A stretch of DNA of 64,000 bases from assembly GCA_032718475.1 (NCBI GenBank), contig JAUCBJ010007522.1:73263-137262 (forward strand), given 5' to 3'. The DNA comes from Nemertoderma westbladi (taxonomy: Eukaryota; Animalia; Xenacoelomorpha). This document shows, in pieces, positions 8,306 through 50,956 of the stretch. Below the pieces are notes generated by a model. That model saw only the letters and a list, made by a program, of their open reading frames with translations. It searched no databases and had not been told where the DNA came from. The stretch's first letter is position 1. The number at the start of each line of letters is the position of its first letter. The translations under genes were made by a program, and so were the position numbers.

Positions 8306-9455
8306 TCTTCGCGCTTTTAGACTTTTAGCAGTTTAACCTGCCAAATTTAGGTGTCTTCTAGGTTATAAATCGACTTTAGCCTATGACTAGTATTTGATAC
8401 ACATAAACACTACATTAGCCGAAGCCAGCCTATGCGCGACCATTCACCCACTGGATTTACCCGGGAGACTGGATTCGGAAGCTCTGACCTTATTGCGGTG
8501 TAGGCCTACTGTACTATTCGATTGATCGTTAATATATAATCTCTGACAAATATTATTCACTTTCGGGAAATACTAACAGTTCCTTTAGGACGTGGCGCTC
8601 TAAATATGTAAACAGAGTTATGACTTACACTAAACACAACGGGATGGCTATTGATTTACGTATAAGGCGCATTCTTTAGGAAATGCTTGTTATCTGTCAC
8701 ACTCATGCACACTAACGCACAATGCTGCACACCGATCTGCCGACCTTCACAAATTTTAGTCATATATAAAGAGAACAGCAACCGACACATGTAGGGCCTA
8801 TGAAATAGCATTCATTTCACTCCAAAACCACTATAATGTAAGTCGCAATTGCTATATGTAACCGGTCTCTCTAACCTTCAGTATATCAAGAAGATTGGGG
8901 TTGTTTTATGGTGATTTATCGATATTCTCCAAATATAACAATATTCCATCAACTGATACAATTAATAACCGACAGTAAATAGCAGTAGAATAATGCGTCA
9001 TGCATATGTATGCACTGATAACAGTTATACGTTTCTATAATCAAAGCCGTTCTAATGTTTGGCTAAAGTCTGAAACACAGAATAATTCCATGGCCGGTGT
9101 TCTAGGCTTAGGAAAAATACACACTGACTGAATTGCGTGAGTTTCTGTATGCACTGTCCAACACAGAGGGAAAACCGCTCTGATGGTCGAGCCGAACAAA
9201 GAAAGCCAAAAGCTACACGTCGACATCTCAGCTGATAGATGTCGTCATCTGAAATACACTGTATTAAGAGTATTTTTGGTGCATTGCGGCATAAAATTGC
9301 TAGTTATGTCCGCTAAAGTACACATACAGAAGAAATGGCTTTTTATGTCCACTAAAACACCTGTACAGTAAGGAAACGGCTTTTTATGTCCACTAAAACA
9401 CCTACAGAGTACTTTGCGGGGAAAATAACCAGCTAATTCCGCAAAAGCCTTTACA
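8306..9455 (-). repeat. BEL-B 3' LTR (1150 bp)
   Basis: Direct repeat of 19336-20480. Begins TGTAAAGG on the minus strand and is preceded by the PPT-like GGGAGCAG (plus 9456-9463). Confidence 0.95.
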
Positions 9456-9533
9456 CTGCTCCCAGAAAATGGGATTTAATTCTATAAAATATAAAAAATC
9501 ACAGTTTCTAAAATATAAAAATACTCTAAACAG

Positions 9534-11049: not shown

Positions 11050-11085
11050 AGCTGCAATATGAGTTTATCAATATCATAATGAGTT

Positions 11086-12751: not shown

Positions 12752-14905
12752 TTACGTTGAGGAGTCCCTAGATGTTGGTTGGATTGGGGAGGTGGTCGTG
12801 GGAAGAGCATCTTGCCTTCCATAGTTTCCGGAGAGTTCTCTGTCTCTTTCCAGTAAACATAAACGACCAACTGGGCGATTGAGCTGCTGTGTCTCGAAAA
12901 CAATCCCAGGTTTCCTCTTCTTCCTGGAATAGTGACGATAGAAACATCGCTTCAAATACACGACTGCCTTACAAAGCCGATTCCAGGAGCTATAGTGGTC
13001 CATCGCTCCCGGCAGGAGAGGTGAGAGTCCCTGTGAGACGTCTGATGTTCCAGATCTCCAGTTTCTCTCTCTGATCTCCACAACAGATCTGTTCGCGGTG
13101 GGGGAATTTAGATCCACAGCGTCGTCCCTGGCAATGTGTAATACAGACAGATCTATCACGGGTTTAAATAACCTCGATTTACTCGTCCGGGTTTTAGGTT
13201 TGACTTTCTCCGCTCCCTTGGCTTGTCTAATCTCAGCCGTGGTAAGATGGGGAGGCCATTCATCTTCTTTACTTAGGAAGTCGGGTCCACCTAACCAGTT
13301 TGGAGTATCTGTCAGTTCTTGAGGAGTTGCTCCTCTGGAAGCGATGTCGTCTAGATTAATCGTCTCGGGGCAATGTCTCCATTGATCTACATTAGAGTTA
13401 ATATCGTCATTATCTGAGGAGTATGGTGTTCCCTCAGTTGGGTCGTCTCCCTCACTGGTCTCATCCTCCCATTCACTCACCTGGTAGACCCGTTCTTTGT
13501 GTAGCCTTTCCATGAGAGTTCTACGGGAAGGTCCAGTAAAGTACCAACCTACTCTAGTTCTTCCCGCATAGGTTTGTAGTGGTTGCGGTTGAGCAGGCCG
13601 TTTCTCCAATGTCTCAAGCGCCTCATGCGCATTTTGGCCGATGAGTATTTGCACTCCAGGGTAGTCTGTGTTGAATCTAGGTATCTTATGCTGCTGGGTG
13701 AAGTCGTCCTCATCCCAGTTATAAGGTTCCACTTGGCTGGTAGCGAAGTTCTTTATTGCCACCATTTTTACTGACCTTATACTGCATTCTCCTAGTTCAT
13801 CCTGGGGGGTGGACAACGCACCTACATAGTAATCTGTAGTTACTGTAGATTTCCAAACCTGCATAATTCCTGACATGTTCAATTTAGTTCAGAACTTGGG
13901 TTGTCCAGCAAAGATGTCTTCGGCTAGTTCTTTGTCGATGAATGTTCCTGTGCTGCCGGAGTCAAGGAGGGCGTTCACTATATAACTCTTTTTAGGCCCG
14001 TGGACTCTCAACTGCACTACGGGAAATTCTCGGATTCCTACGTTGGAAGTTGGTGCTTTCCAAGATGGTTGTCGGTCAGGAGTAGTCAGGGGGAACTCGC
14101 TTTCAGTTTCTTTCTCATACGTAAGTGCTCGATACACTGCGGTATTTATTAGGTAACAGGATTCGTTTTCGTCGGAGAATTCATCCGTATAAAATCCTTC
14201 CATCTCAGAACTTTGGTCAGTGTCGTTCACATCACTGAATTGGACATGTAATTCGGACTCACTTACCTGACTCGGGCTGTTTCTTTCGAATTCAGTGTGC
14301 AACAAGATATGATGTTTCGCGCCGCACTTAGCACACCTTGCGTCGGAGTAACAGGTTCGCCGTTGGTGTCCTTGTCTGAGGCAATTATAACACAACCGCT
14401 TATTCCACATGACTTCACGTCTATCTATTAGGGATTTCCTCAGGAATTCATCACACGCACTTAAACGGTGGGGCCCGTCGCACAGCACACATTTTGGTTT
14501 GATGTTACTTACCTTACTTTGGGTAACGTTGTGCACTCTCGTTCTTTCCTCGGGCTTTCTTCCATGAATTCTCTTAGGAGACGTAGGAGGAGTTCTTGTT
14601 ACCTGTTCTCTCCTGTCATCGGTTCGAGACTTAAATTTACTTACGTCTTTAGGCGCTTTGTTAACATAGTAAGATCTTCCAGTGTCTTTCCCGCTGTCCT
14701 CCTCTTGAGAGGCCTGGCTTTCGCCGTCGTCTGTATAACACACTGGTGTTACCTTTCTCCTAGAAACGGGTTTCTCACTTACCTTATTTTCCGGTGTCTT
14801 CTCTCTGGACTGCTTTAGGAGCTGTAATTTTACCTCTCCATCTAAGAATGACATGAGATCAGCCATGGTAGGGTCTCGTCGTTGTTGTTCCATCATATAT
14901 AACAC
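12752..14905 (-). pseudogene. pol: BEL-B gag C-terminal knuckles, protease, and fused remnants of RNase H and integrase C-termini
   Basis: CVLCDGPH, CYNCLRQGHQRRTC, CAKCGAKHHILLH and ALLDSGSTGTF. Then ...DINSN|VDQWRHCP and ...HYS|RKKRK..LNRPVGRLCLLE. No RT motifs. Confidence 0.9.
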
Positions 14906-17661
14906 TTTCTTGTACCTACTCCACCCTTTGGCAGAGTTGATGCTAAGGCTCCTACAACCATAGAATTCTGGTATTCATGAGACTTACCTAACCAATATAG
15001 CTGTCTACAGATCTCCTGAATCTCGTCAGAAAACTCTATAATCCCGCTGCTAAGAAACTTTCGGGGCGCCATTAATTTTGCATACAAATACCTAGCTATG
15101 TTTGTCCTATTACCATACCTGATGTTTAGTGTATCCCAAACTTGTCTTAATCCATCTGGATGTCCAATAAACTTTAATGCCATTAACTTGGGAGGTCCTT
15201 CCAAACACTCGATGAGGAATCTAAGTTTCTCTCCGTTAGATAGTACAGAGTTCTGTATGTTATCTTTGTAATATTCATTAAAAGGTAACCAATTCACCTC
15301 ATCTCCATTGAACTTGACGATCTCTCCCATCTTTACCGCTTGACGAGCTTCAGTTCTAGCCATTTGACGCGTAAAACTTTCTTGGGCCATCGTGTTATTT
15401 AATATCGAGTTATCGGTATATAAATTTGACGGATTATGATCAGGTCTATATGGAATATCATTGTCAACAGGTTTATAATTACCCTTAATAGGGTTTACTA
15501 TAGGAGTTTCTACTTCACTAGCAGTATAGATGCGTGTAGGCTCCACACCTTGCGCATGAAATACTTCAGACCTAACAGGTTGACACATTGTTACAGGTGG
15601 TGGTGGTATACCCCTTTGTATATTTACTAATTTATCGCGTTCTAACGCGATACTCTGCTGCACTTCTTGCAACTCTAACCTACTTTCCCTTACTGTTCCC
15701 TTGAACTGTTGAACAGTCTCCTGCATCTGCCCGAGCAGGAGATCCATCCCCCGCCGTCCCTCATCCACCCACTCGACCGCCGAAGCGGGAGCCGCCAACA
15801 TAGTAGCGGGTAGACGAGGGACGACGGGCGATAAATCGTTGATGTCTCGCTCGGCGTCCAGGACAGGAATTGTCTCAGGGGCTGTTCTACTGGGCACAGG
15901 TAGTTTAGTGCTGTGCAACGGGAATTTCGAGGTAGGTTCTGGGAGTACAGGTGTCTCTATCACCAAAGGGGTGGCTTCGAGAACAGGCCTAATTGTTTCA
16001 GGCTCATCTACTATAGTAGGGAGTCTTTTTATTCTAATAATTTGGTCTGTGGGTTCTGTACTACCTAAGTCTGTGCTAGCTAGTTGCCTTCTCACAGCTG
16101 GGGGCAAATCAGGCAATTTCTGATGGTGGGGCATTCTTCTACGCCTGCTGAGACGAGATCTATTTCCTCCGCCTTCAGGATCGGTGGTATCGCCTTCATC
16201 AGATGATGTATAGCTCTGTCGCTTGGGAGTAGATCTACTTATCATCTGCATTTGACTAGCTGTTAACTGTTTATCTATGTAGTCTTGCGTCTCTTGCAGA
16301 TTTTCCAACTCTAGTTGGGTGGTCTCTTCAGATGCTCTCCATTCTGCTTCTGCCACTGCCTCTGCCGCTTTTCTTTCCGCTTCTACCGCTGCTCGCTTTC
16401 TTTCCGCTTCTACCTCTGCCGCTGCCGCTGCCGCTTTTCTTTCAACTTCTGCCGCGGCCGCTGCTGCTGTCTTTCTGTCTTCTATACGTTTTTTCTTTAC
16501 CAATTCTTCTTGGAGCCTAGCGATGCGGAGGCGTTCATCAAATTTAGTTTGGTTCGCAGCTAACATTTCCGCATCTAATGCGTCCAACACACACTTGGCT
16601 CCTTCACTATTAGGGCGAAGTCCAGCCAGCCGTCTCCTCAACTCTTCGTCTCCTTTAAATCGTTGATTGTCTGACAGATTGAGGTCAATAGCGTCCTTCT
16701 TCTGCGGTTTCTCTGCTGTCGCTTCGTTTTCCACTTGAGAAAAGGTAGCGTCTGTTGATTCTCCATGGGTTGAGCGCTCAGCCAGGTGAGATTTCCACTG
16801 GGCCATTCCTTGAACCTTGAGACTCACCCGTTGGAACCAAGTCTTCAACCGCTGCAACGACGTGTCCTGTCTTCTTTTCGAAGCTTCCTCAAAGGCCGAT
16901 AGGATTAGTCTGATTCTTAGAGTTCTTTCTCGAACTTGATAAAGCAGCTCTCCCTGCTCTTGAGGTCCTTGGGGTTGTTGAAACAGTTGTTCCTCTAATC
17001 GCTCCAAAGAGCTGAAGAAACTCTGTACATATCCTGCTGCCGACCTCTTCCACACAGCTGGATCACTAGTGTCTTTTGTCACTCCCATCCTGTGTAAGTC
17101 CTCCCAGGCAGCTTCCGATAAGTTAAATGGGAGTTCGGGTCTGGGGAAGTTCCATTGCGTCTCGACAATAGACTTCAGTTCCTCCCTTGTGTATCCCGCA
17201 TAAATGTCCTTGGTCGATTGCTTACTTCTCGCCCAATCGATTTGGTGTTCCTCCACCGCAATCAATACCCTAGTGAGTACAGCTGCAGGAAGAATGAGAA
17301 GGGGATCCGAATAAACCGCATCTGCCATCTTTGCTCCGCACTCGGGTGTCAGCTCTACAGTATCCGAACTACTGGAGCTGTCGGGCCGCTGAGAAATAAG
17401 TTCTCGGATCGGGTGTTGCTGCTGTTTAACAGCAGCAACTCCCTCTTGGTCCCGCTTGACTTGAGCCCTAGTGCCTATGATAGACCTATGGTGCTCTACT
17501 ATCCTAGGGTCTGACACTACTACTGTAGGGATGACCTTGCTTACAGTAGGAGGGGACTTGGACTTTGGTCTCAGACGTTCTATACTCTTAGCTGAGTCCC
17601 AGATCTTTTTAAGACCCTGTCTAACACTCATTCTAGCACTTTCTAAGAGACTATCTGACAA
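14893..17661 (-). CDS. gag: BEL-B Gag, long N-terminally extended form (922 aa to frameshift)
   Basis: KFNGDEVNWLPF...EKLRFLIECLEGPPK capsid motif and a coiled-coil Ala/Glu/Lys region. Collinear with BEL-C Gag. Confidence 0.88.
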   Translation of the reverse strand: MSDSLLESARMSVRQGLKKIWDSAKSIERLRPKSKSPPTVSKVIPTVVVSDPRIVEHHRSIIGTRAQVKRDQEGVAAVKQQQHPIRELISQRPDSSSSSDTVELTPECGAKMADAVYSDPLLILPAAVLTRVLIAVEEHQIDWARSKQSTKDIYAGYTREELKSIVETQWNFPRPELPFNLSEAAWEDLHRMGVTKDTSDPAVWKRSAAGYVQSFFSSLERLEEQLFQQPQGPQEQGELLYQVRERTLRIRLILSAFEEASKRRQDTSLQRLKTWFQRVSLKVQGMAQWKSHLAERSTHGESTDATFSQVENEATAEKPQKKDAIDLNLSDNQRFKGDEELRRRLAGLRPNSEGAKCVLDALDAEMLAANQTKFDERLRIARLQEELVKKKRIEDRKTAAAAAAEVERKAAAAAAEVEAERKRAAVEAERKAAEAVAEAEWRASEETTQLELENLQETQDYIDKQLTASQMQMISRSTPKRQSYTSSDEGDTTDPEGGGNRSRLSRRRRMPHHQKLPDLPPAVRRQLASTDLGSTEPTDQIIRIKRLPTIVDEPETIRPVLEATPLVIETPVLPEPTSKFPLHSTKLPVPSRTAPETIPVLDAERDINDLSPVVPRLPATMLAAPASAVEWVDEGRRGMDLLLGQMQETVQQFKGTVRESRLELQEVQQSIALERDKLVNIQRGIPPPPVTMCQPVRSEVFHAQGVEPTRIYTASEVETPIVNPIKGNYKPVDNDIPYRPDHNPSNLYTDNSILNNTMAQESFTRQMARTEARQAVKMGEIVKFNGDEVNWLPFNEYYKDNIQNSVLSNGEKLRFLIECLEGPPKLMALKFIGHPDGLRQVWDTLNIRYGNRTNIARYLYAKLMAPRKFLSSGIIEFSDEIQEICRQLYWLGKSHEYQNSMVVGALASTLPKGGVGTRKCYI

Positions 17662-17826
17662 TGTTTGTTTTGTGTCAATGTTTGTGTCAATGTTTGATTG
17701 TACAGTTGAATGCCTACTGCTATAATTACAGTTAGAGCAAGTCTAGTAATTCAGTATCACAGTTAGCCTAGTAATTAATTACCGATATCGTTACTCTATG
17801 TAACATGATATATATACAATATATTA

Positions 17827-18080: not shown

Positions 18081-19335
18081 CAATTATTTTAGAATAATTG
18101 AATTTCTGAATTTTAGGGGTTACTTGGTTACTTTACTTTACTTTATTACCGTTATTTAAGCAGTAGTCCAACTGATATTAAGGCCTACTATTTTATAAAT
18201 CGGTTGGAGTTGATTTATAATATATATACCCGTTTAACGGGTTTTTGTTACAATATTTGAAATAAATGTTATTATTTCTGGGACGGAGTCACTACACCGA
18301 AGGTATACGCTCTCAGTGAAGTGCTACTTGTTGGACACTAAAACAAATAATTCTACTTGCCTAAGTTACTTAATACTACAAATTACATACAATTACGGGG
18401 TGAGATTACAATCTCTAAATAAACACAAAAATTACACGTACGAATTTTTAGGGTTAATTTTACAGGGAATCTACAAACCGGCCTAACAAGGAGTTAGAAT
18501 GTCTGGTTATTACGAACGGACAGGATACTACAGTATTTGAAAATAATAAAGCAGTAGTAAATATATTGCGTTGTCTAGATAGGAAAAATACCACCGTCTG
18601 ACGACTTATAGCCGTAGTGCTATAAGTACTATGTTATGTATCACGGAGTGTTCCTACCTAGAAGTTAATTACCACAGCCTACTATATCAAACGTGCCTAT
18701 TAACCACTTTACAACACAAATATACTGCCTACACACTAATTACCTTCGGAAAGCACTGTACACTAAACCCTAAATTAGGTACAAGTACTTATACAACAAA
18801 TAACCAGCAGTTAAAAATACTTGTACAGCTAAAAGAACCACGGTATCTGCTGGAGTGACCAATGCACAAAATCACCAGTCTTTACCTACGCCAAACAGTC
18901 CTGATGTAGTACCGGGGTTAATTTAACTATAACGGTATGTATAACAAGCACAATTACTGTAGGAATAAACTTGGGGTTGTGAATGTTGTGAATAATCGCA
19001 TAAACTCTGAATAATAAATATTACGCTACGCGTACAGACTACACAAACAAAATACAGACCAAACGCTGGCAGACTACTATCAAGCCCAAATAAACTACAG
19101 TATATGTAGACTCCGAAATGGTTAGTTAGTATGCGTTCTAACTGAGTAGTACGACTTATTCTTTCGGGGGGGATTTACCTTACAGCACTGGATGCCCCCA
19201 CGTTCCTAACTGGTACTTTATCGGACATACACTCTACACACACCGCAATCTCTTCAGGCCTACTGGTTACCGGTCGACCGGTACTTTTGCCCTTTTTATT
19301 GCCTATGTTGCAATAAAGAAAGCTATAACTGTTAT

Positions 19336-20480
19336 TGTTCGTGCTTTTAGACTTTTAGCAGTTTAACCTGCCAAATTTAGGTGTCTTCTAGGTTATAAAT
19401 CGACTTTAGCCTAAGACTAGTATTTGATACACATAAACACTACATTAGCCGAAGCCAGCCTATGCGCGACCATTCACCCACTGGATTTACCCGGGAGACT
19501 GGATTCGGAAGCTCTGACCTTATTGCGGTGTAGGCCTACTGTACTATTAGATTGATCGTTAATATATAATCTCTGACAAATATTATTCACTTTCGGGAAA
19601 TACTAACAGTTCCTTTAGGACGTGGCGCTCTAAATATGTAAACAGAGTCATGACTTACACTAAACACAACGGGATGGCTATTGATTTACGTATAAGGCGC
19701 ATTCTTTAGGAAATGCTTGTTATCTGTCACACTCATGCACACTAACGCACAATGCTGCACACCAATCTGCCGACCTTCACTAATTTTAGTCATATATAAA
19801 GAGAACAGCAACCGACACATGTAGGGCCTATGAAATAGCATTCATTTCACTCCAAAACCACTATAATGTAAGTCGCAATTGCTATATGTAACCGGTCTCT
19901 CTAACCTTCAGTATATCAAGAAGATTGGGGTTTTATGGTGATTTATCGATATTCTCCAAATATAACAATATTCCATCAACTGATACAATTAATAACAGAC
20001 AGTAAATAGCAGTAGAATAATGCGTCATGCATATGTATGCACTGATAACAGTTATACGTTTCTATAATCAAAGCCGTTCTAATGTTTGGCTAAAGTCTGA
20101 AACACAGAATAATTCCACGGCCGGTGTTCTAGGCTTAGGAAAAATACACACTGACTGAATTGCGTGAATTTCTGTATGCACTGTCCAACACAGAGGGAAA
20201 ACCGCTCTGATTGGTGCCGAACAAAGAAAGCCAAAAGCTACACGTCGACATCTCAGCTGATAGATGTCGTCATCTGAAATACACTGTATTAAGAGTATTT
20301 TTGGTGCATTGCGGCATAAAATTGCTAGTTATGTCCGCTAAAGTACACATACAGAAGAAATGGCTTTTTATGTCCACTAAAACACCTGTACAGTAAGGAA
20401 ACGGCTTTTTATGTCCACTAAAACACCTACAGAGTACTTTGCGGGGAAAATAACCAGCTAATTCCGCAAAAGCCTTTACA
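19336..20480 (-). repeat. BEL-B 5' LTR (1145 bp)
   Basis: TGT...ACA termini on the minus strand. Differs from the 3' LTR by a few substitutions and two small indels. Confidence 0.95.
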
Positions 20481-21258
20481 ACAGGAGACTAGAAATCTCC
20501 ACCCAATATTAGTAAATAGAGATGTGGGACCCTTGATGGCCGCCACATAGACTTACCGTATTTTAGTAATTTAGTATTTTGTATTACTGTATGTGCATTT
20601 GTAATCCTCTTCACTGTAGATAGAGACAGCGGTGGAATTCCATTGTCTTTATATGTGAACATGGAGGGTAGTACCCTTATGTATCACATAGGAGCGGGAT
20701 TGTGTGTACAGTAGGAATGGAATTCCACTTGCAACCCACAAGTGAGACAATTTTTCAAAAATTATTAGACAAATCCATTTTGTTGGATTTAAATTTAAGA
20801 AAAATGATTCTCCAGTGAATGCGAATTCTAGAATACAGCTAGATAAAAATTAAAATTGGGGAGGACAAGAGCGGATGGAAGGCTTGCGAGCCTACCAATA
20901 AAATTTTTTTTTGGAAAAAGAAAATCGGCCTTGTTCTACGTAGTCGTGTCTACTATTATTTAGACCAAATTAATTCTCGACTGCATTATTTCTTTGGGAA
21001 TGTAGTTTGGGAAATTAAAAGGTGAGTATTTTAGACTCGCGGCTAGTTTACCCGGAATTCGTTTTTTATCGGCACAATTTTTTTTTGGATTAGGAGCCAG
21101 TGCGAAATCACACGAACCCGAAGTACCTAAAGAGGTGAGGTCTCTATAGGGGTGCTTCAAACAGGCGGCGGCGGACTCATGAGGGTCTGGGGGCACGTTA
21201 AAATATTTCGCGTATAGTGCTAGGGAGTCACTGAAGGCCCTCGTGTCTAGCGAATCAG

Positions 21259-31151: not shown

Positions 31152-31266
31152 TGTTAATGCCACTAGTGAATGGCATTTACCTCGCAGGCTCGCCCCATAT
31201 TGTTAATTTACTTCTGCCAGGGAATTATTATGTTATACGGCAAGGGCCATGCAGAATAGCTCTGAT

Positions 31267-33801
31267 AATAATAATAATAATAATAAAATAAATTTGTATA
31301 GCGCCAAATTTACAATATTTAAACAGTACGCTAAGGCGCTTAAGTCACTATCTAGAGATATTGGTACATAGCGATAAAGTACGATAAACGAATATAATAA
31401 ACTCAATTAATGCACCAAATACAGACAAATTAGTGATAAAGTAAAATATTTTGGATATTAAAACGGACAAGTAAGCGATATGTAAAATATATGATAAATA
31501 TATGTCATAAAAAATATGTAAAATATTTAGAGCATTAAAATAAAACCGGCAAATTTTGATAATGTTACACAATTGGGGCATTAAAAACAGGCAGATATGT
31601 GACACGACAACGATCAGCATAAGTTCAGTGATACAATTACAAATACTTAAATTAATTACTACAAATTGACAATGCAGTTTGTAATTTTATTGCGTGGCGA
31701 AAAGTATCAAAATAAGACAAATTCGTGATCAACTATAAGCAAAATAATTAATTAAGGATTTAAAACGGACAATTAAGTGACAAACGAATAAGTAAAATAT
31801 TTAGAGCATTAAAACCGGCAAATTTTGATAACGTTACACAATTGGGGCATTAAAAAACAGGCAGATATGTGACACGACAACGATCAGCATAAGTTCAGTG
31901 ATACAATTACAGATACTTAAATTAATTACTACAAATTGACAATGCAGTTTGTAATTTTATTGCGTGGCGAAAAGTATCAAAATAAGACAAATTCGTGATC
32001 AACTAATATAAGCAAAATAATTAATTAAGGATTTAAAACGGACAATTAAGTGACAAACGAATAAGTAAAATATTTAGAGCATTAAAACCGGCAAATTTTG
32101 ATAACGCTACACAATTGGGGCATTAAAAAACAGGCAGATATGTGACACGACAACGATCAATATAAAGTTCAGTAATACAATTACGAATACTTCAATAAAT
32201 AAAACGGTTCAATCAACAGTTCAGTTCAAATTTTCAATATAAGTAAAATTAATTAGAGCTTAAAAGAAAAAAGTTTGTACGATATACAATGCAGTATACA
32301 TACCAACATTATTAGAGCATTAAAAGACAGTTCAATGAAGCAAATTAGATAATATAATTAAATTAAATACTAGAGGTATTCGAAACTAATTATGCGTATG
32401 CCATGGAGAAAAGGTATGTTTTGAGTCGTCGCTTGAAGGTCGGTGTATCGGAAATCGAACGGATATCTGTGGGGAGTTTATTCCAGAGTCTGGGGGCGGC
32501 TATGGGGAAGGCCCGACGGCCCAAAGTTTGGCAGTTAAAACGCGGTTCGACGAGCGAGAGTGAAGTGCACCTTCGGGTTGTGTGGTTTGCGTAGGTCACC
32601 GGGGTTAGCATTTCGCGGATGTACTGTGGTGCTCGTTGCGATCGGGACTTGTGAACGAGGAGAAGTAATTTGAATTCGATGCGTTTCCGAACTGGTAGCC
32701 AATGTAATTGCTTGAGACTCGGAGTGATGTGATCGTATTTGTGAACCTTGGTTAGTAGACGTGCAGCCGAGTTTTGTACGCGTTGCAACTTTGCAAGTTG
32801 GTAGCCAGGTACACCGTAGAGAAGACCGTTACAGTAATCGATACGGCTTGATATGAGCGAGTGTATGATGGTTTCTGCAGACTTCTGGTCGAGAAAGTTA
32901 GCGATGCGTCGAATATTGTGGAAGTGGAAGAAGGCTGCGCTACAAGTTTTTGTTATGAACTTGCTCATGGTTAGACCAGGATCGAGCCATGCACCAAGGT
33001 TCTTCACCGATTTTGCTGGATATATTTCAAAGTCCCCAACACGAATAGACTTAGTAGTTAGTTTAGATAATTGTTGCGGGGTTCCTAATATTATAAACTC
33101 GGTTTTGTCATCGTTTATTTTTAGTTTATTTTCGATGAACCATTCGCGCAAATCTGCGATGCAATTTTCTAGAGCTTTTAGTGCATCGGCTTCATCGGAT
33201 TCGTTAGTTGGCTGAAATGCGTGGTAGGTTTGTTTATCATCTGCATATCCATGTAAAGCAATCGGTAAGTGTCGCTCGATGATTTTAAATAGCCCTCTGC
33301 CAAAGTTCCCAAAGTAGTGACATGATGAGCAAGCTCCCTGGGGAAAACCATATTCTAGTAAGTGATCCTTAGAGTTCGAACCCAATGTTGTTACGTGTTG
33401 ATGACGTCCTCGGAGAAACGATGAAAACCAACGGAGACAGGTGCCACAAATTCCCAGGTCCGACTCGAATACGTTCAATAGCCGATCGTGGTCTACAGTG
33501 TCGAAGGCGGCACTTAGATCTAGTAGCACTAGAAATGTCACCTTCTTGTTGTCCATGTTGATAAGGATATCGGATTGAACTTTAATTAAGGCTGTTTCGG
33601 TACTGTGGAATCGTCGATATCCCGATTCAGTGCATGGTAAAGGATGGTGTTCATCAATGTATGGTAGGAATTGTGACATTACTGCTCGCTCTGCAATTTT
33701 TGATACAAATGGTAAACCACTTACAGGTCGAAAATTGGATTTTATAATCGAGTTCAAATTAGTTTTCTTTAAAGTCGGCGTGACTGTTGCCGTTTTCCGT
33801 T
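31267..33801 (-). mobile_element. 5'-truncated L2/CR1-group LINE
   Basis: RT ORF 33757-32390. The 3' end GGCGCTATACAAAT...(TTA)n has a GCGCC/GGCGC stem. A ~273-bp tandem duplication lies in the 3' UTR (31519-32190). Confidence 0.92.
32390..33757 (-). CDS. LINE ORF2 reverse transcriptase, C-terminal 455 aa
   Basis: NFRPVS, HSTETAL, LDLSAAFDTVDH, GFPQG, YADD, SRIDYCN, LHWLPV and GRRAF motifs. Confidence 0.92.
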   Translation of the reverse strand: MNSIIKSNFRPVSGLPFVSKIAERAVMSQFLPYIDEHHPLPCTESGYRRFHSTETALIKVQSDILINMDNKKVTFLVLLDLSAAFDTVDHDRLLNVFESDLGICGTCLRWFSSFLRGRHQHVTTLGSNSKDHLLEYGFPQGACSSCHYFGNFGRGLFKIIERHLPIALHGYADDKQTYHAFQPTNESDEADALKALENCIADLREWFIENKLKINDDKTEFIILGTPQQLSKLTTKSIRVGDFEIYPAKSVKNLGAWLDPGLTMSKFITKTCSAAFFHFHNIRRIANFLDQKSAETIIHSLISSRIDYCNGLLYGVPGYQLAKLQRVQNSAARLLTKVHKYDHITPSLKQLHWLPVRKRIEFKLLLLVHKSRSQRAPQYIREMLTPVTYANHTTRRCTSLSLVEPRFNCQTLGRRAFPIAAPRLWNKLPTDIRSISDTPTFKRRLKTYLFSMAYA

Positions 33802-36415
33802 TGATTGGCTAATACCCATTTGCATTCAGCTTACCAGCCCCAGCCTATATAGCATTATATCAGTTGGTCAGCCTAACTATTGAAGATTTATTAGTTAACA
33901 GCTCACTAGCTGTTAGTAGATTTGTGGGTCGGAATATTCACGTCAATTCGTGATATTGCCGATGTCAATTTGTGATATTGATTCGTATTATGTCGATTTA
34001 TTGTTTGTCGATTAATTAATTTGTTATATCAGTTGAATTATTGCGATTTATGTTATTATTATGTTATCGATAAAGATAAAGAGAATGGATTCAAGTCATT
34101 CTGTTGTTGATTAACGTTGGTAGCACAATAACATTGAGGTTGGTGGTCTATAGACTGTACGGTATTGCAACTCATCGCACTGGGGTGTACGTGTTACAGT
34201 ATTGTCATATGACGCCTAATATTAATAGCAAACTAACATATTTTAATACGTGCACAAAATTAATTCCTGTGACATCGGTATCTCGGATTGTCAGTTTCAT
34301 AAATCCGACTTCCATAAGTCTCGAATGAATACAGTTTTCAGTTAGACATAAAGACGTAAGCAGCCCAGATACACAACTTAAAGGAACTATTTATACGGGG
34401 TTTCAAATCTGTTTATAGTAACGCCAGTTTTATATGCAACAATAAATTATTCTACGAGTACAAGTAACGGTTACTAGCGCCCGTTTCTTGTATATACAGC
34501 TGGTCGTAAGTTTAGGCTCATTATTTGCAAAATTGAATTGTAGCGCTAACAGTGAATATTTAACTCAGTGAAGATTTCGCCAGCGAATATTATCCACCTG
34601 GTGAATTTTTCTCCTCGCATTTATTGTTGCATTGTCCTTATCTGTAATTCTAGAGTAGGCTATTTAGGACTGCGCACCCTGAATAGAATATTTTAAGTTT
34701 ACAACTGTCGGTGTTATAAATTGATTTACTGTGTATAGAATAGGAGTTGTAAAAATTTATTTACCTGAATGTTTACATTTACAGTATGTACATTTATTGT
34801 TGTAGCATTTAATAGTTCAGTGTAGATTCTGCACTCAAATATTTCAAGCGGCTAACGAACTGCGTGTCCCCCACCTTTTTGATAGGACGTCCCGCACGTC
34901 CCTTGCGTAATTATATCTCGCTTGGTGTCAATCTCGTCTTAATAGTAAATCGAGTATCTATCTAAATATTCTGGGAGAGGTATTTGAAGAAATTTTTCTG
35001 TACTGTGTTGTTTGTGTTTCGATTGTGAATTGCTTATTTGTGAGTGTGATTTCAGGTGACTGAATGTGTTTGTGCTGTTCCCGTCTTGACTGCATGAAAA
35101 CTGGATTAATTGGTCCCATATCAATCCTGTTGGTGTTCGGTATAGTGAGTACGTTTAAGGGATTTGAACGCTCAGTTGTATTGCGTTCAGCGGCAGATCG
35201 ACAGTAAGATTCCTAGCTACGTGCGAATAGGGTATCGATGATCGTTGGGTAACTGAGCAGACGTATTTCTTATTGTAAGCACGAGTTCCTGATATCAAGT
35301 TATTAAATTTTGCTTACCAGCGGGTAAGGCTAAGCAAAATTTATTCCTGTGGACAGCAGTGTTTGTTTGAAAATTGTATGCAATTAAAGAATTTCTCCCT
35401 TGACGCTGTTCGGTTTCGGAGGCTGGGGAAACTTCCACGTGTCAGACTCGACGTTGTAAATCTATGCAGGTCTCGGCGTACCATAAGTCTATGTGTGTTC
35501 GTAACCTGACAGTGGAATTGTGTGCGACAGATTGATAAATATTGTTGAAAGCAAAATGCGAAGTCCCAAAATAGTTGGAATTAAATTCCAGCTATAAACA
35601 TAAATTTACTCCCCTGATAAATCTAACCCGTTAAATTGTCCTATCCATTTATTGTAATATTTTGATTTGTAATATTTTGATTTGTAATAATTTTCTTTGT
35701 ATATTAAGTACGCATTATCATTAGGTACATTCTATTGTATTATCATTCTGTAGTAGATTAATTTATATTGCAGGAATATAAGAATAATCTATATACCAAA
35801 GCAATTTGGTCACATTTATTTCATAGACATACGGCATCAATATAACTTGTCTATATCATTCATTACAGGCATACAAGTTACTCGGAACTGCCAATATATC
35901 GAATTAACTTCCCTGCAGTCGACCCAGTTACTGTTAGTCTATATTGGAACATTGCCAAGAGAGTACAATACAATAGCTTGTAACAGAAAGCTTTAACATC
36001 AGCCCATACTGCCTTGATAATTATTGTAGGTAACTGAGCGAACAAGGAGGGCCATTTGTTATCTCCTCTGACTGCCTTAGTATAAGCCATTTACTGTCAA
36101 GCCCTATTAAATTGAATTATCCATATAGGCATCGCCAATCAGATAGCTACAGTAGCTTCCACCAGTGTAATTTCATCTGAGGGTGTTAGGCAAAGGCGAC
36201 TCCTTACGGGAATATCCAGCACTAGCATTTCTTTAACTAGCACTTGTTATCTTTCTATCAGTAGGTGGCGTGGCTTATTTCTGTTGCAGAAATCAACTGA
36301 CTGACAAGCTATATATACTGCATTAATAATTATTAATTATTTGCAGGCGCTACAGTTTATAAATAAATTATAGATTGGATCTTTTTAATTAATTATATTT
36401 AATTAATTAATTAAC

Positions 36416-39400
36416 ATGGATGATCATAAATCTACTTTAAATAACAATTCTTTTATGTCCGCACCCAGTAATGCTTCTAGTAGTGATGGGTTTGAAGTCC
36501 GTGACAAGATTTTGAGAACCCCTCCTCCAGCAAGAAGTCCAGCAGCTGTACATCCCCCAGTTAGAATACATAGTAGGGAAGTCCAAATAACTGACACACG
36601 GCTTGTAGATCGTCGTAGATCTGTGATCGGCACTAGGGCACAGAGTAAAAGGAAAGGGTTAGTACAGGCAAGTAAGGACACTGAGTTGGACAAAGACTTG
36701 CAAAAATGGAAAAATAAGACTTCCCAGCGAGAACAAGCAGCAAGTGTGGACGTCAGAACACAAAGAAGTCCCACTTATAGTAGTGACAGTTCCAATTCTG
36801 ACAGGGATGGTATTTACAGCAGAAATGACATGAACATGACTGTATTGCCTGACAATGAAATTATACAAGGTAACCAGGCCTCTCATAATACAATAGGTGG
36901 ACCGATAATAGGTGAGGCTTCACACCCCCAATCTGAATCCATTCCAGCTAGTGTAAGTGAAGTCAGTTCATCTAAAGGTTCTGGTTCTGACACCTCGTTT
37001 AAAGATCCCTTAACGAGGCTGCCACCGAATCAATTAATCCGCCTGCTAGAGGCAATAGAGACTTATAAACCAACATCACAACACTCCATGCGGGATATTC
37101 TGCCGGTGAGTTTCAAAGAGAGGTATTACGCCAGCACAATTTCCCCAAGTTACACAGGTTTTTTAACCTAGGTGATGCTACTGTAGAAGAGTTACAAAAA
37201 TTAAAAATGCAAAATCAGTGACAGAATCCATGACTTATCAAAGGATGGCGAGAACATTTAAGCAAGGCTTTAGTAAACAAATTGAGCAACTTAAAATTCG
37301 ACTCCATGCTGAGCGGAGTACACAAGTTATTGATCACTCATTAGATTTCGAAGTGGTGCAGAGAGTGTTGCGTATAAGAATAATTTTTTCGGCATTCCAT
37401 GAAGTGGCACTAAGACTTCAGGATTCTGTTTTGGATAAATTGATAAACGACTTACTCAAAGAAGTGGTTGTCCTATCCAAATCTGTTCTAGAATACAAAC
37501 AAGAAGTCCCAGTAGATGTCATCTCACAACTGACAGATCAAATAGAAATCGTGGGAGAAACAGAATTGCGCCGGCGATTGCAGGGCCTGAACCCAAGGAG
37601 TAAACAAGCTAGACGGGTGTTGGAAGACATTGACCGACTGGGCAAAGAGCGTGCTTTGGAGCAACTGGAATTAGATGCTGCTCAGAAAAGGAGGAAGCAA
37701 CAGGTGATCGAACTAGAATTAGAGGCCGAAGCAGATAAAATTAATGCCAAAGCCGAGGCAGATAGAATTAAGGCCGAAGCCGAGGCAGAGAAAATTAAGG
37801 CCGAAGCTGATACAGAGAAAATTAAGGCTGAAGCTGAGGCAGAGAAAATTAAGGCCGACCAATTAAGGGCATTGGAACTCGAACGAAAGAAAGCGGCTTT
37901 AGCTGCAGAGGATGAAATGGCAAGAAAAAGGGAGGAGATACAAAGGAAATTCTCTTCGCTTGACAAAGAACGGATCACCCGGAAGGCCACTTACTTCTCC
38001 TCATCAGATGAGGGTGCAAGTGATAGTGACATAAGCAAAGTCTATTCCTCGAGGGCCGAGAACAGTCGCAGAAAGCGAGCATCGTTATTCCGGATGCCGG
38101 ATATGCCACCGAGATCTAACCCACATGCATATTCTGACGCCTGCCAAAGTGACACATCCTCTCTAAAACAATCTGCCCCCTTGGTTACCATTATAGATGT
38201 TGATGAGGAAGCTGAAGCTGAACCTGGTCCAGATATGTCAGTTCCAGCGCAATTGACAAACAATAAAATATCAAATAATAAACAACTAAAGGTAACTCTA
38301 GTAACTGGTAAGACACCCGAACTTAATCATAATAACCCTGGCTATGGAACCGCAGCTATGTCGGCAGTAGCTCAGGCTGGACCCGCAGGTAAGACACATG
38401 GATTGAACCAGACTAAACATACTACTGTAAGTTTTGTACAAGGTGAGAAGACTATTAGTGACCCATGTATGTCCAGCACAGTCAGAGTTCCCCGGAATGA
38501 GCGTGTTTCCTTTGAGAGTGGTTTGTCACCGATTAGTCACCGTAGATTGGCCATTGAAGGAACCGATGAGACCCATGGATCCGCAGATATGTCGGAAGTG
38601 GTCATTGGTGAGCAAGGGGCCCATCCTGAACGTGAACAGTTAAGGAGGACCAATGAAACAGGTAAAGTATGTAGGCCAAAAAACATTATTAAACCAATGG
38701 ATAGTGAGATAACTAGAACCCAAATTGAGGAAGGCAAAAGGGTGCAACAGGGTCTGCGAGACACCATCTCAGAGTTAAGACATACATTAGGAAATAATGG
38801 TGAGTTTGCAAATACATATGCAGAAAATCTAAACGAATTAAAGGGAGTGCAAGATGAAATTTTGAGGTTAAATAAAGTGAAGGAAGCTGATCTAAATAAA
38901 CTCCGAGAGAATGATATAGTATTTGAAAGAAAACAAAATGAAATATATTATTCCACTCAAGTTCTGGAGGGAATTCAACAACAACTAGTAACTGCTCAAG
39001 ATACATTAGCTGCGATTAATAACCAATTACCATCATCAGAAAATGTTAGAATTGGGCAGAATGTACACATTCTTCAAAGATCAGCGCAAGCTACTGGTAT
39101 GCATGCAGAAAACATAGCAACCATGAGGACCCAAATGAGAGACACTGATCAACCACCTATTGACCCATTCTTGAACCCTAATCCCATGCAAGTACCACCT
39201 AATGTTACCCGGCCACCAGATAGCCTTGGTAATTTATCGACATCTTTTCTTAACCTCTCAATTCAAGAAAGCCTGAGTAGACAAATGGCCAGACAGGTTG
39301 TAACTGGAGGTGAAACGATAAAATTTAATGGAGATGCATTGAAATGGCTTCCTTTCCACGAGTACTTTAAAGACAATATACAGAACTCACTTTTGACTGA

Positions 39401-40286
39401 AGGAGAAAAATTAAGATTTCTCATTGAATGTCTAGAGGGACCCCCAAAAACAATGGCTCTGAAATATGTAGGTCATCCTCAAGGGTTACAAGAAGCATGG
39501 AACACACTTTCTGAAAGGTATGGTGATCAATCTACCATTGCGATGTTTGTGTTTGACAAATTAATTACAAAGAAACGTATAGCAGGTGGAGGCTTGGTTG
39601 AGTTCTCGGATGAAGTCCATGAGTTGTGTAGACAGTTAGATTGGTTGAATAAGGGAGAAATGTATGACAATTACATGGTCGTCAATAAAATAGCTGGTGC
39701 TCTACCAAAGGGAAATGTTGGTAATCGATGGGATCGTTTTGTTGTTCAAAACAAACGTGATAGACAGCGTGACGTCACCATGAGAGACTTCCTTAAATTC
39801 CTCAAGGATGAAGTCACTCTACAATTTCAAAGAGATGTCCGTGAAAGAGGAAGTGAGGCCAAACCAGCAACCGAGAAACCTGTTATTGTTCCCAGAAAAA
39901 GAGTTATGAATATCTATGACCCAGAATACGATAGCAGTATTTCTTTGAGAGAAGACATGGAATCTGATTCCCAGGAAGTCTACTATTCGAAACCAACCGG
40001 TAAACCCAATAGCCGACTCCATACACTGACAAATACGAAAGGTGATATACAAACCTCCACCCAACGTGATATAAGATCAACCAATGGGATACTACCACGA
40101 TCCCAAGTAACTAACACAAATGATAAAACGGTAACAAATAAATATCCTAATACATGCCCCTTTTGTCCAAAGGTAAGTCATCAAATGTACCAATGCCCAG
40201 AATTTTTAAAGATGAGTGATTTAAAAATTTTTAAAGATCCAGGAGATGGTTTATTAAGAACCAACGTATATGCTACAAATGCTTGA
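36416..40286 (+). pseudogene. gag: BEL-C gag, long N-terminally extended form (frameshifts near 37170 and 40230)
   Basis: RRRSVIGTRAQ, ELRRRLQGLNP and KFNGDALKWLPF...EKLRFLIECLEGPPK, collinear with BEL-B. Tandem AEAEKIK repeats. Confidence 0.9.
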
Positions 40287-43200
40287 AATTTGGTCATTTG
40301 AGGAGAGATTGCAAAATCGTAGGTATTGAGTGTCCAAAATGTAACGGTTCACATCATGCTCTGCTACATAGCGAATCTTACACCCCTAGAAGTATGGAAC
40401 AACGTGTACACTTCAGTGACGCTTGCGAAGATCCGTATGACTCTGACGAACTGGCAGGTTCTCCATATCCAGGTGAGTTTTCAGATGATAGTGACTCGTG
40501 TAATGTGTATCATATTATGATGGAAAGAGCCCTAACTTATGTCTCAAACCCGGAAACAGACGATATCACACCATTACAACACTCATCAGTTAATCAGGTG
40601 ACAAAACTGAAACAGTCCAGGAATGTAGGAGTAAGAGAATTTCCCATAGTCCAGGTGAGATTACATGCAGGTAAAAGAAGCATTATACTAAATGCATTAA
40701 TGGATTCTGGCAGCACGAATACCTTCATAGATAAAGATCTTGCTGAGACACTGTGGGACAACCACGAAATATATCCCATGCGACTTAATTTAGCCGATGT
40801 AATGCAAAAATGGACTTCAACATTGGAAACGTTCTATTGCATTGGTGCTCTGTCAGCCCCGACCAATCATGATCATATATACTCATTGGACAATGTAAAA
40901 ATGGTGGCGATAAAGAACTTCACGAGGGGACAAGCACCATTATATAATTGGGATGAAGACGAATTCACCAACGAACATAACATACCCCGTTATGATGTTG
41001 ACAGTCCTGGAATTTCCCTCCTGATTGGACAGAATGCACATGAGGCTCTCGAGATATTGGAGAAGATACCTAAAAAACCTTTACCTTTAGCACCATACGC
41101 ATGTAGGACGCGGATAGGTTGGTATTGTACGGGACCTTCAACGAAAACCTTACAAGAACGAACCGGAGCAAGTATAAAGGTAAACGAAGTTCTTAGCTAT
41201 GACTCATCACTTGAAAATGTCTTATCGACTGACAATGACCAAAACATAGACCTAGAGAATGATGAGACTGATACAGAGTTAATTGATGACGAACAGTATA
41301 TTAATTATCAAATGCAGAATTATAATTCTTTGCAAGGAAATTTTGTTAACGATGAACATGACGAATTAAGTGAAATCTTGCGAGCTCAGGCTGAATATAA
41401 TGCTGAGCAACAACTCGTTGAAGATGAGCGATCCCGTGACATACAACGGACTACCACAAAATTCTTAAAGAATGAAGGTAAGTATGAAATAGGTTTACTT
41501 TGGCGCTCTCGGGATCCCAAGTTCCATAACAACAGAATTCTAGCAGAGAAGAGAGTGGAACAATTAAAGCGACGTTTGGCTGCAAACCATAACGCATGGC
41601 ACATGTATAGGGAACAGATGGAGAAGTTCATCACAAAAGGGTATGCTGAAGAAGTGCCAACAAGGACACCAGAATCAAATCGGACATACTATATAACTCA
41701 TCACTATGTGGAACGTCCCGACAAGCCAGGTACTGTGAGAGTGGTCTTTGATGCTTCAGCTCTATATAAAGGACAGTCTCTCAATTCAGAATTAATGACT
41801 GGTCCCAACATGTTGCAATCCCTTCTAGGAATCTTGATTCGCCTTCGCCAATACTCGATCGCCTTCGCCTCAGATATTGAAGGCATGTTTTTACAAGTGA
41901 AGGCCCTACAAGTAGACAGAGATAGCCTCCGGTTTTTTTGGTGGCCAGACGGAGACTTTAGAAAACCTCTGAAGGAATATTGGATGACGGTACAAGCGTT
42001 TGGCATTAATTCCAGCCCATCTAACTCATGCTTCATTGTTCATACCACGGCGGATGATAACCAACATGATTTCTAGCCCACCATCCTAGAAAATATCAAG
42101 AAAGATATATATATGGATGACAACTTGAAGTCTGTTCTAACCGTTGAGGAGGCGATAAGCATAGCGAAAGGCACAGTAGAATGTCTTAAACGAGGAGGAT
42201 TCAAGCTCACGAAGTTCGCTAGCAACTCCAGAGAGTTTCTGGACTCAATACCATTCGAAGACCGTGGTGCGAAAAATCTGGATTTGACACGTGATGATTT
42301 ACCGGAAACAAAGACATTAGCTTCTAAAGCTCTCATTGTGAATAAAGAGTTAAGGACACGACCACCTAGGGCAGAATTGAAAGCAGGTTTCTATGCAACA
42401 ACTGTTGCTAAAAACGTGACTGAATATTTGAATTTTGAAATATCAAGGACTACATTTTGGACTGACGCTGTCTTGGTTCTAGAATATTTAACTAACGAAG
42501 TATGTCAGTTTAGTGTATATGTAACGAACAGAGTTGCAATCATGCTCAGCCGCACAAAGGTGGATCAATGGAGGCATTGCCCCGGTACTATCAATCCCGC
42601 TGACATTGCTTCGCGTGGTGCGACTACAAGAGAGTTGATTAATACCAAATGTTGGCTCAACGGACCAGAGTTCTTATGGGAGGCTGGAAACGAATGGCCG
42701 AAAAATCTGACACCGGCAGAAATCCGACAGGCTAAGGGAGCCGAAATAATAAAGCCAAGGAAAACTACAAAATCAAAGTTATTCACCAAACCACTTGATA
42801 TAACTGCCCAAATAGTTGACAATGACTTGGCCCGGAAACCAGAAACTTCTGGACTTCAGAATTCGTATTTCACTAAACATGAGGAACCCCATGAAAACAT
42901 AACGACCAATTCAGACTTACCAAACCATATTAGTGATACTTCAAAGATCACACCACGACAATCAAGTGATACATTGCCTAACATAAAACAAGGATTATCA
43001 CCCTTATTGGAAGAAGCAATGAATCACTATAGTTCTTGGTACCGGTATAGACTTTGTAAGAGCGAGACATATCTCAAGAAATACGTGCACTACCGTTTTG
43101 GTGTGTCTAGAGACTGTACACCAGCAGTGACGCGAGGAGATATTGATGAGACTAATAAACAACTACTGCGTCTTTCTCAGAAACTCGATGACCCAGCAAG

Positions 43201-43704
43201 GTACAATAAATTGGTGAGTGAACCAGGCATCACGTTGCGTGACAATTACACAAGTGTCATGATAGATGGGTTAATTAGGGTAGGGGGTAGATTGACTAAC
43301 GCTCCTGTGTCTAAGGATACCATATTCCCAATAATAATATATAGCCCAGATATACAACGTAAGTTAATTCAAGACACACATGCCAAACTTTACCATGCTG
43401 GCCGTGAACGAATTCTTAGTGAACTGCGCACTCGTTATTACTTGGTTAAACCCCGTAAGTCACTTAATAAAATTTTAAGGAATTGCATCCCCTGTAAAAG
43501 ACTGTACAGTAAGCCATTAACCCAAATTGAAGCGGAGTTACCACGTGAGAGGGTAAGTTGCTACCAACCGCCGTTCACAAACACCGGTGTTGACATGTTT
43601 GGACCAATAGAGGTCAAACGAGCACGTACCAAAGTAAAACGATGGTGTATTATATTTGTTTGTCAGACGTGTAGAGCGATACATCTGGATATGGTCAACG
43701 ACAT
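40283..43704 (+). pseudogene. pol: BEL-C pol: knuckles, protease, RT, partial RNase H, N-half of integrase
   Basis: ALMDSGS, YITHH, DIEGMFLQV, YMDD, WRHCPGTINPAD, H..H/CIPC and GVDMFGP. Stop at 42076. In-frame deletion at ETKTLA|SKA. Confidence 0.92.
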
Positions 43705-44005
43705 TGTTAGATTATGTATTGTAAGGGCTCTAGTAGACCCTGGCTTGGTGGTGGTTAGATCCAACCTACTGGTCTTTTAGCTACCGGTCTTCTTCTGGTA
43801 TTCCGGTATTCAGTCTTTCCTATCTTCTAGGTCTGTAGGTACAGTAACCGTTACCAGTACCTACTGTACTGCTGTACTGATGTGCTGTAAGGTGGTGGGT
43901 GTGTTCGTTGGTCTGTTGGTTCTTATTATTGTTTGATATGCTGTTCTGTATGTCGACCATTAATAAACTGATGCAGCTGGTATTCATTTATTTCCGATCC
44001 CAATA

Positions 44006-44016
44006 TGGCGCAGTGA
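44006..44016 (+). promoter_or_regulatory. tRNA primer-binding site of the Gypsy element (TGGCGCAGTGA; possibly tRNA-Ser)
   Basis: TGG lies immediately after the 5' LTR. The tRNA identity is from memory of tRNA-Ser 3' ends (...CTGCGCCA) and was not verified. Confidence 0.75.
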
Positions 44017-44177
44017 TGTACTTGATGTTCCTACAACCCTATTCAAATGGTGGACATTCCAGCGCATTCAGCAGGTTAGATAATTCAACATTATTCTACC
44101 GGTCGCCTCTACTGATTCTGATATAGGCCTAGCTACCTACCTATACTTCTGGTGGTGTACCTACTCCAGTACTCTTC

Positions 44178-44353
44178 TAAACTAAGCCCTTGGGACGGAC
44201 AGTGGAGTGACTCACGCTGGTTATCGTTGTCGTTGTGTAGCTACTACGTTGGCGAAAAACACAGCGACGACGGTAGCCTACATCGGCGCTGAGGACCTTG
44301 CGCTGTCCGGGGGCCTTGAGGGGTAGGCAGCGACGCCCGCTAGCCTAATTATA
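44178..44353 (+). ncRNA. Putative structured RNA module in the Gypsy 5' UTR, shared with BEL-B
   Basis: Closely matches the reverse complement of 11086-11256. Several differences are G-U/Watson-Crick exchanges within stems. Confidence 0.65.
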
Positions 44354-44555
44354 CTGTTATAACTACCGGTACCTATTCAATTCACATTCAGCAGTCAGGT
44401 GGTATTCCAGTCTGCCAGTATTCGATAACTACAGATTTTGGCTGATTTGCGTGCAAAAGTTTTGCACATTTTTGCAAAATTTTTTCTTTTCGGATTTTTC
44501 AAATTTTTTCGGATATTTAATTTCCTGAAATTTCTTTAATATTCAACAGTCAGAT

Positions 44556-48020: not shown

Positions 48021-48392
48021 ACTGACCTATTGGTGGTGGTTGGATTTTTTTTTTTCAGTACAAATGTCTCCTACATTGTTCTTGGGGGAGATGGTAGATT
48101 ATGTATTGTTAGGGCTCTAGTAGACCCTGGCTTGGTGGTGGTTAGATCCAACCTACTGGTCTTTTAGCTACCGGTCCTCTTCTGGTATTCCGGTATTCAG
48201 TCTTTCCTATCTTCTAGGTCTGTAGGTACAGTAACCGTTACCGGTACCTACTGTACTGCTGTACTGATGTGCTGTAAGGTGGTGGGTGTGTTCGTTGGTC
48301 TGTTGGTTCTTATTATTGTTTGATATGCTGTTCTGTATGTCGACCATTAATAAACTGATGCAGCTGGTATTCATTTATTTCCGATCCCAATA

Positions 48393-50906: not shown

Positions 50907-50956
50907 TCGACAAGCACTTATAACTCTTGATATCTTTGGATCATATATATCGAACA

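Follow-up and report, generated by a model that had tools for sequence, protein, structure and literature searches.

We analyzed a 64,000-nt stretch of DNA (the window) containing nested animal retroelements and found that one of them, the BEL/Pao element BEL-B, carries directly past its 5' LTR a 12-nt sequence complementary to nt 425-436 of the LTR itself. Judging from the letters, these post-LTR bases probably pair with the LTR site and serve in self-priming of the kind known from Tf1. Our confidence in self-priming was higher for the group of elements as a whole than for BEL-B; the BEL-B copy is a defective, palindrome-confounded example. BEL-B most likely represents a variant of a known self-priming mechanism within a family that is defined as tRNA-primed.

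BEL-B and its primer-binding position

BEL-B (8306-20480, minus strand) was delimited by its pair of LTRs and a 5-bp target duplication. Self-BLAST, alignment of both copies and the sequence itself placed the 5' LTR, 1145 bp in length and bounded by TGT...ACA, at 19336..20480 (minus), and self-BLAST and alignment placed the 3' LTR of 1150 bp at 8306..9455 (minus). Their alignment of 1150 columns showed 12 substitutions and 5 columns with gaps (98.6% identity; alignment and self-BLAST). The 3' LTR had a substitution at one end and the LTRs were otherwise TG...CA. The target site duplication, ACAGG, was found at 20481..20485 (plus) with its twin at 8301-8305, and BEL-B was inserted into the 3' end of the pol of BEL-A, another BEL element. 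Since the LTRs were nearly identical and the ACAGG duplication was intact, the boundaries of BEL-B are firm and its insertion was recent.

The gag frame of BEL-B carried the Pfam domain DUF1759 (14893..17742, minus). The next frame contained a zinc knuckle and an aspartic protease (13889..14974, minus; weak Pfam matches, 45% identity to BEL-C, a further BEL element in the window), and a fused pol remnant (12752..13888, minus) was detected by tblastn against BEL-C and BEL-A. Three blocks of this remnant matched BEL-C by tblastn: one just past the protease, one at the RNase H end and one at the C-terminus of pol. Missing from pol were RT, the larger part of RNase H and the integrase core, so that BEL-B did not have the complete PR-RT-RH-IN set; the loss of RT had been overlooked in the original prediction. 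Because of these losses BEL-B would be non-autonomous and would need a helper. The DUF1759 domain and the 44-58% identity to BEL-C, which came out closest for each of the three frames when the 82 fetched loci, BEL-A and BEL-C were compared, identified BEL-B as BEL/Pao. Structurally it also had what is expected of BEL/Pao, namely TG...CA LTRs, a target duplication and a short purine tract, GGGAGCAG, preceding the 3' LTR (9456..9463, minus). No close full-length relative of BEL-B was found; the viral contigs scanned for relatives contained none, and a protein search for longer homologs returned 9 distant proteins without genomic context.

Three other features of BEL-B were recorded. The gag of both BEL-B and BEL-C (14893-17742 and 37176-40286) had a very long N-terminus, with 700-800 aa ahead of DUF1759 and a charged alanine-rich stretch. 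A 170-bp stretch of BEL-B (11086-11254) was 91% identical to the leader (44179-44353) of the Gypsy element that lies within BEL-C, and both copies run in the same direction with respect to their element. Between this Gypsy-like stretch and the BEL-B 3' LTR, a chain of short frames (9534-11064, minus) resembled a broken extra gene; five pieces of it gave no Pfam match and BEL-C had no counterpart.

On the element strand the 5' LTR of BEL-B ended in GAACA and was followed directly by ATAACAGTTATA (19324..19335, minus), which occupied the primer-binding position without a TGG. TGG was absent from the first 60 nt past the LTR, and the element thus lacked a binding site for a tRNA 3' end. The perfect 12-nt complement of ATAACAGTTATA, our candidate self-primer, was located at LTR nt 425-436 (20045..20056, minus), and the same complement was present in the 3' LTR (9018..9029, minus). 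The original prediction had reported both the missing TGG after GAACA and the two perfect complements, and both were borne out, with boundaries set by the LTRs and ACAGG. Since the insertion was recent, some primer must have been used, and no tRNA 3'-end site was present. A search of 17700-20500 with Rfam gave no matches, and ARAGORN detected no tRNA gene in the whole window.

We assessed the chance level of the match under rules of different stringency. A flush contiguous Watson-Crick match of this length was obtained 4 times when the LTR was dinucleotide-shuffled 10,000 times and in 4 of 5,000 shuffles in a separate run, and in a control with the leader none of the 1,503 other positions reached 11 bp (maximum 10). 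When offsets of 0-4 were allowed, the match was equaled in 2 of 300 shuffles. When offsets of 0-8, splice junctions, G-U pairs and one mismatch were all permitted, the numbers rose to 17/100 for the 5' LTR and 12/100 for the 3' LTR. The BEL-B match was therefore strong under the preset Tf1-type rule and weak with every rule loosened, and taken alone it was not significant under the loosest scoring. BEL-B was also searched for a splice-junction primer, and no junction beat the contiguous match. Elements of the Tf1/sushi type are recognized by a primer-binding site complementary to the LTR over ~11 nt in place of a tRNA site; the complementarity measured 12 bp in BEL-B and 9 pairs plus one in BEL-C. 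The BEL-B site is a near-palindrome, ATAAC-N-GTTAT, which the original prediction had not noticed.

Self-matches in BEL-C and in distant BEL/Pao families

BEL-C (31152..53195, plus; self-BLAST and domains) retained RT and was flanked by the target duplication TATAC. Its LTRs were located by self-BLAST at 31152-34551, interrupted by a LINE, and at 52329-53195 (plus), and its domains were DUF1759, a BEL-type RT, an integrase zinc domain and DUF5641. The post-LTR site of BEL-C was GTGAATATTT (34552..34561, plus); it contained no TGG, the first TGG being 47 nt past the LTR. Its partner, GAATATTCAC, lay at LTR nt 249-258 (33932..33941, also 52577-52586; plus), and the two formed 9 Watson-Crick pairs and one G-U pair, flush with the LTR end. 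This match arose in 93 of 10,000 shuffles and in 29 of 300 with offsets of 0-4, and the self-match of BEL-C is accordingly a modest one. One weak-donor junction scored above the contiguous match under loose rules (8/100 shuffles) and was off the pattern of the relatives described below.

The geometry was shared between BEL-B and BEL-C while the letters were different. The LTR site was 709 nt from the LTR end in BEL-B and 609 nt in BEL-C. A CCAATCAGAGC box, which we take to be an NF-Y-type promoter box, lay upstream of the LTR site by 148 nt in BEL-B (20204..20214, minus) and, as an inverted copy, by 131 nt in BEL-C. The LTR sites were just upstream of the sole alignable LTR block of the two elements (BEL-B 457-539, BEL-C 301-391), the alignment of which was marginal (5/200 shuffles). 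The leaders were not clearly alignable, with a score of 48 against 36+/-5 (maximum 60). The RT of BEL-C fell among 81 BEL loci, with a best RT identity of 49%, and in the RT tree it had a long branch and an unsure position. BEL-C itself lies in a 20-bp satellite. Besides the LINE that interrupts its 5' LTR, it has taken up a Gypsy element with an ordinary TGG primer site (43705-48392) inside its integrase region. The ~3 kb ahead of its 3' LTR were without a frame of at least 120 aa.

The search for distant families by RT alignment yielded 82 loci, of which 80 were in metagenome contigs and the other 2 in genome contigs; none of them was close to BEL-B or BEL-C. We counted those loci in which the LTR end was defined by a direct repeat (15 of 82, representing 11 families); the other 67 loci were kept outside the count. 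Two families had a TGG site, L040/L041 and L048, in which TGG was found 3 and 7 nt past the LTR, and nine did not. In seven of these nine a match of 10-13 nt to the family's own LTR was present; it was contiguous in one of them and spanned a GT-AG junction in the other six. The contiguous LTR match, of 10 bp, was that of L014/L019 (1/1000 and 2/1000 shuffles). Perfect GT-AG junction matches were identified in L006 (11 nt), L025 (12 nt), L034/L054 (10 nt), L058 (12 nt) and L062 (10 nt), each reached in 0-2 of 300 shuffles, and their junctions had mostly GTAAG donors and pyrimidine-rich acceptors. L071 had a 13-nt match with an offset of 6 allowed (1/200 shuffles). With one locus taken per family (L006, L025, L034, L058, L062 and L071), the predicted LTR introns were 71-149 nt long; that of L054 was 67 nt. 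In the six junction families the site began with GT 0-6 nt past the LTR and an AATAAA-type signal was present downstream. The remaining two families, L063 and L081, had only imperfect, non-significant self-matches.

The elements with a TGG site served as controls. Under loose scoring they showed no self-match (L041 142/200, L048 55/200 and the window's Gypsy element 177/200), and L048 gave one 9-nt match under strict splice rules (3/300). Outside the count, L042, whose LTR end was set by eye, had an 11-nt match and L068 had no self-match. A blind LTR-end search of 15 loci, run without a null and left uncounted, gave canonical-looking junction matches in L005, L029, L030 and L051 and a TGG in L023.

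The original prediction had placed the primer 3' end necessarily flush with the LTR boundary. Wherever a family had a self-match, it started 0-6 nt from the LTR end, and the primer sites of relatives started 0-7 nt from it, indicating that the flush position is not obligatory. In the relatives and in BEL-C the primer site started with GT and the match ended with AC; since this rule was drawn from the tested families, nulls based on it are circular for those families. Under the same post-hoc rule BEL-B, whose flush register starts with AT, scored 40/500. A GT sits at offset 6 within the 12-bp helix of BEL-B, and the cut could therefore follow LTR nt 430 rather than 436.

The self-matches of BEL-C and of seven of the nine non-TGG families make self-priming in part of BEL/Pao likely and lend support to the earlier proposal of a self-primed BEL/Pao lineage. 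The letters of the self-match were particular to each of the seven families. The commoner form in relatives spans a predicted splice junction, which BEL-B and BEL-C can do without. An RT tree was built from 83 rows, 66 of them different, with L046 left out and BEL-B absent for lack of RT. The TGG families L040/L041 and L048 were placed among the self-complementary families, suggesting that the primer type has switched repeatedly. L081, a BEL element that has its two LTRs and a 5-bp duplication, comes from a contig carrying the label of a bacterial MAG, probably as host contamination.

Folding, transcription start and rival explanations

In duplexfold the BEL-B helix continued past a 2x2 loop by 5 bp (AGAAA/TTTCT), one more than the 4 originally claimed, but in folds that include the leader this extension was outcompeted by a local leader stem, and the importance attached to it was not supported. 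The cofold layout was alike in BEL-B and BEL-C and consisted of the duplex, 2 unpaired nt, a pairing with the U5 end (4 bp and 7 bp, respectively) and a leader hairpin. In BEL-B, GTGC (20039..20042, minus) was predicted to pair, after the 2 unpaired nt, with GCAC near the LTR end (19341-19344), and the predicted leader hairpin, an 8-bp stem plus 5 bp, lay directly past the primer-binding position (19294..19317, minus). Tf1/sushi elements have accessory U5-IR-like stems beside their duplex. The predicted U5 pairing and leader hairpin of BEL-B and BEL-C are at most candidates for such stems.

The probability of the duplex depended on where the RNA was made to start. For BEL-B it was 0.98 from nt 410, 0.56-0.63 from nt 385-400 and 0.02-0.05 from nt 325-365. 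For BEL-C it was 0.98 from nt 249 and 0 from the TATA-implied start near nt 187. The duplex of L014/L019 never formed in the fold, and since the method misses this duplex, folding of whole transcripts is weak evidence either way. Two motifs in the BEL-B LTR could mark a start, namely TATAGAAA at nt 415, which is TATA-like, and TCAGT at nt 323-327 past the CCAAT box, which resembles an initiator. Read as TATA-like, TATAGAAA would presumably put the site in U3, and TCAGT, if it is taken as an initiator, would put it 100 nt inside R. BEL-C had a TATA box at nt 156. The promoter-like motifs were thus ambiguous in BEL-B and pointed to a start ~60 nt upstream of the site in BEL-C. That the RNA begins with this site, as it does in Tf1, was unsupported, since promoter-like motifs would place it 60-100 nt inside. 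Contigs of one run, which we guess to be RNA, had low cover at plus 20016-20310 within 18600-20340; as contigs show neither start nor strand, this carries no weight.

The near-palindromic nature of the BEL-B site led to the strongest of the rival explanations. The palindrome TAACNGTTA had 7 matches in the window against 2.0 expected (0/100 shuffles), at 9019, 19326, 20046, 34465, 43845, 48232 and 53109, in or just past the LTRs of BEL-B, BEL-C and the Gypsy element. It was absent from the LTRs of 11 relatives and for that reason looks host-specific. Its occurrence in three unrelated or distant LTR families is possibly that of a shared host transcription-factor site, which we assume to be Myb-like; a literature search for a Myb identity of TAACNGTTA found nothing. 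Because it is common to all three LTR families of the window, the BEL-B LTR site may serve another job. In that case the two BEL-B sites would go back to a palindrome bound by a transcription factor or to a small inverted duplication, and priming would occur by other means. We consider this unlikely. The confinement of all seven matches to LTRs or their immediate neighborhood and the flush register of BEL-B, which breaks the GT/AC pattern, speak for it, but the shared 9-nt palindrome fixes only 8 of the 12 pairs, and the centre and three flanking bases pair too. It would furthermore leave BEL-B without any primer site, and the BEL-C match, which is free of TAACNGTTA, and the 7 distant families would be unexplained. 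The palindrome lowers the weight of BEL-B's own match and leaves BEL-C and the distant families untouched.

Two further explanations question the origin of the primer rather than the site. Copia-like elements use half-tRNA priming, in which an internal tRNA fragment is the primer, and the post-LTR site could likewise bind such a fragment or another small host RNA, with the LTR match being incidental. In its favor, the ICTV profile gives host tRNA as the primer of Belpaoviridae (PMC8742986), and the window has no tRNA gene with which an internal match could be compared. However, the post-LTR sequences of BEL-B, BEL-C and 9 other families differ from one another and most of them track their own LTR or predicted junction, whereas one host RNA would hold the site constant; we therefore regard it as quite improbable. 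About equally improbable is that selection has kept the pairing for a structural purpose, the closing of R-U5 for packaging, dimerisation or translation control, with the 3'-OH coming from elsewhere. Although extra helices stand beside the duplex in BEL-B and BEL-C and the palindromic site could pair between two RNAs (-5.0 kcal/mol as compared to -11.4 for the LTR duplex), the match lies within 0-6 nt of the LTR end and replaces a TGG site rather than joining it, a position that fits a primer.

Proposed mechanism and relation to known systems

For self-priming of BEL-B we propose that folding of the 5' LTR transcript would bring nt 425-436 into pairing with the 12 nt past the LTR. The site would have to be transcribed, i.e. 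to lie in the R region, and a BEL-C-type helper would provide RT and RNase H in trans. The RNase H of the co-packaged helper may cleave the RNA on the 3' flank of the duplex; in BEL-B and BEL-C this cut would fall at the 2 unpaired nt that follow the predicted helix. The freed 3'-OH would then prime minus-strand DNA synthesis, possibly with a 5' flap of 0-100 nt on the primer. In this view self-priming would extend to a wider group of BEL/Pao elements, most tested families of which would match only once an LTR intron is spliced out, and BEL-B and BEL-C would represent its contiguous form. Extended to the family, the proposal would be that much of BEL/Pao is self-primed, independently of Tf1/sushi, that host splicing builds the primer in most families, that BEL-B and BEL-C are intron-free, and that primer types have been swapped more than once; on this broader proposal we are evenly divided.

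BEL-B most likely works like Tf1 without belonging to its group. In Tf1 the primer-binding site is paired with the first 11 bases, and the RNase H cut falls between base 11 and base 12 (PMC7175516). Tf1/Tf2 of Schizosaccharomyces pombe, Tj1 of S. japonicus, Tf1/sushi elements and Tcn1 have a short LTR-derived complement of the primer-binding site and no tRNA site (PMC7175516; PMC4600332). BEL-B and BEL-C resemble them in that they too are without a tRNA site and have a short LTR sequence complementary to the primer-binding site. In contrast, Tf1/sushi elements are Ty3/gypsy elements (chromovirus), whereas the domains of BEL-B and BEL-C, and the RT in the case of BEL-C, are those of BEL/Pao. 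The R-U5 past the site is 600-700 nt in BEL-B and BEL-C, unlike in Tf1, and many of their relatives match only across a predicted intron.

Belpaoviridae are described as having an 18-nt primer-binding site for tRNA-Arg or tRNA-Gly, and their replication is called poorly understood (PMC8742986). The DUF1759 gag of BEL-B and the Pao-type pol order with DUF5641 of BEL-A and BEL-C agree with this family, as do the TG...CA LTRs, the 5-bp target duplication and the short purine tract. BEL-B and BEL-C differ from it in having no tRNA primer-binding site, and BEL-B also through the loss of its RT, of most of its RNase H and of the core of its integrase. Fungal GalEa copia elements with a Conserved Hairpin Site also lack a primer-binding site and have a short palindrome directly past the 5' LTR (PMC5445492), and BEL-B similarly has a palindromic post-LTR sequence. 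However, the partner in GalEa is 12-41 nt downstream in the leader, and its authors report no LTR complement (PMC5445492), while the partner in BEL-B is inside the LTR and the sequence varies by family.

We found no report of BEL/Pao self-priming in the literature searched, which did not extend to subscription journals, Repbase, GyDB and bioRxiv supplements. Term look-ups in two BEL/Pao papers (PMC554778, PMC3118150) gave no mention of tRNA or priming. In passages of PMC4600332, PMC7175516, PMC5443660, PMC3601003, PMC5445492 and PMC6934838, self-priming is that of Tf1-like gypsy elements and BEL/Pao is not named; the text consulted in three others (PMC13524379, PMC8220671 and PMC12451622) contains nothing on BEL/Pao self-priming. 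If our reading is correct, Tf1-like priming would have a second origin in a different LTR-element family, Belpaoviridae being defined as tRNA-primed (PMC8742986). Such elements would no longer depend on the tRNAs of the host and would escape silencing by tRNA fragments; in the relatives, DNA synthesis would be tied to splicing. It would also account for annotation based on primer-binding sites missing many such elements.

Apart from the LTR elements, the window contained two long inverted-repeat elements at 21259-21764 and 22492-22993, with arms of 119 and 194 nt, respectively, which are probably MITE-like.
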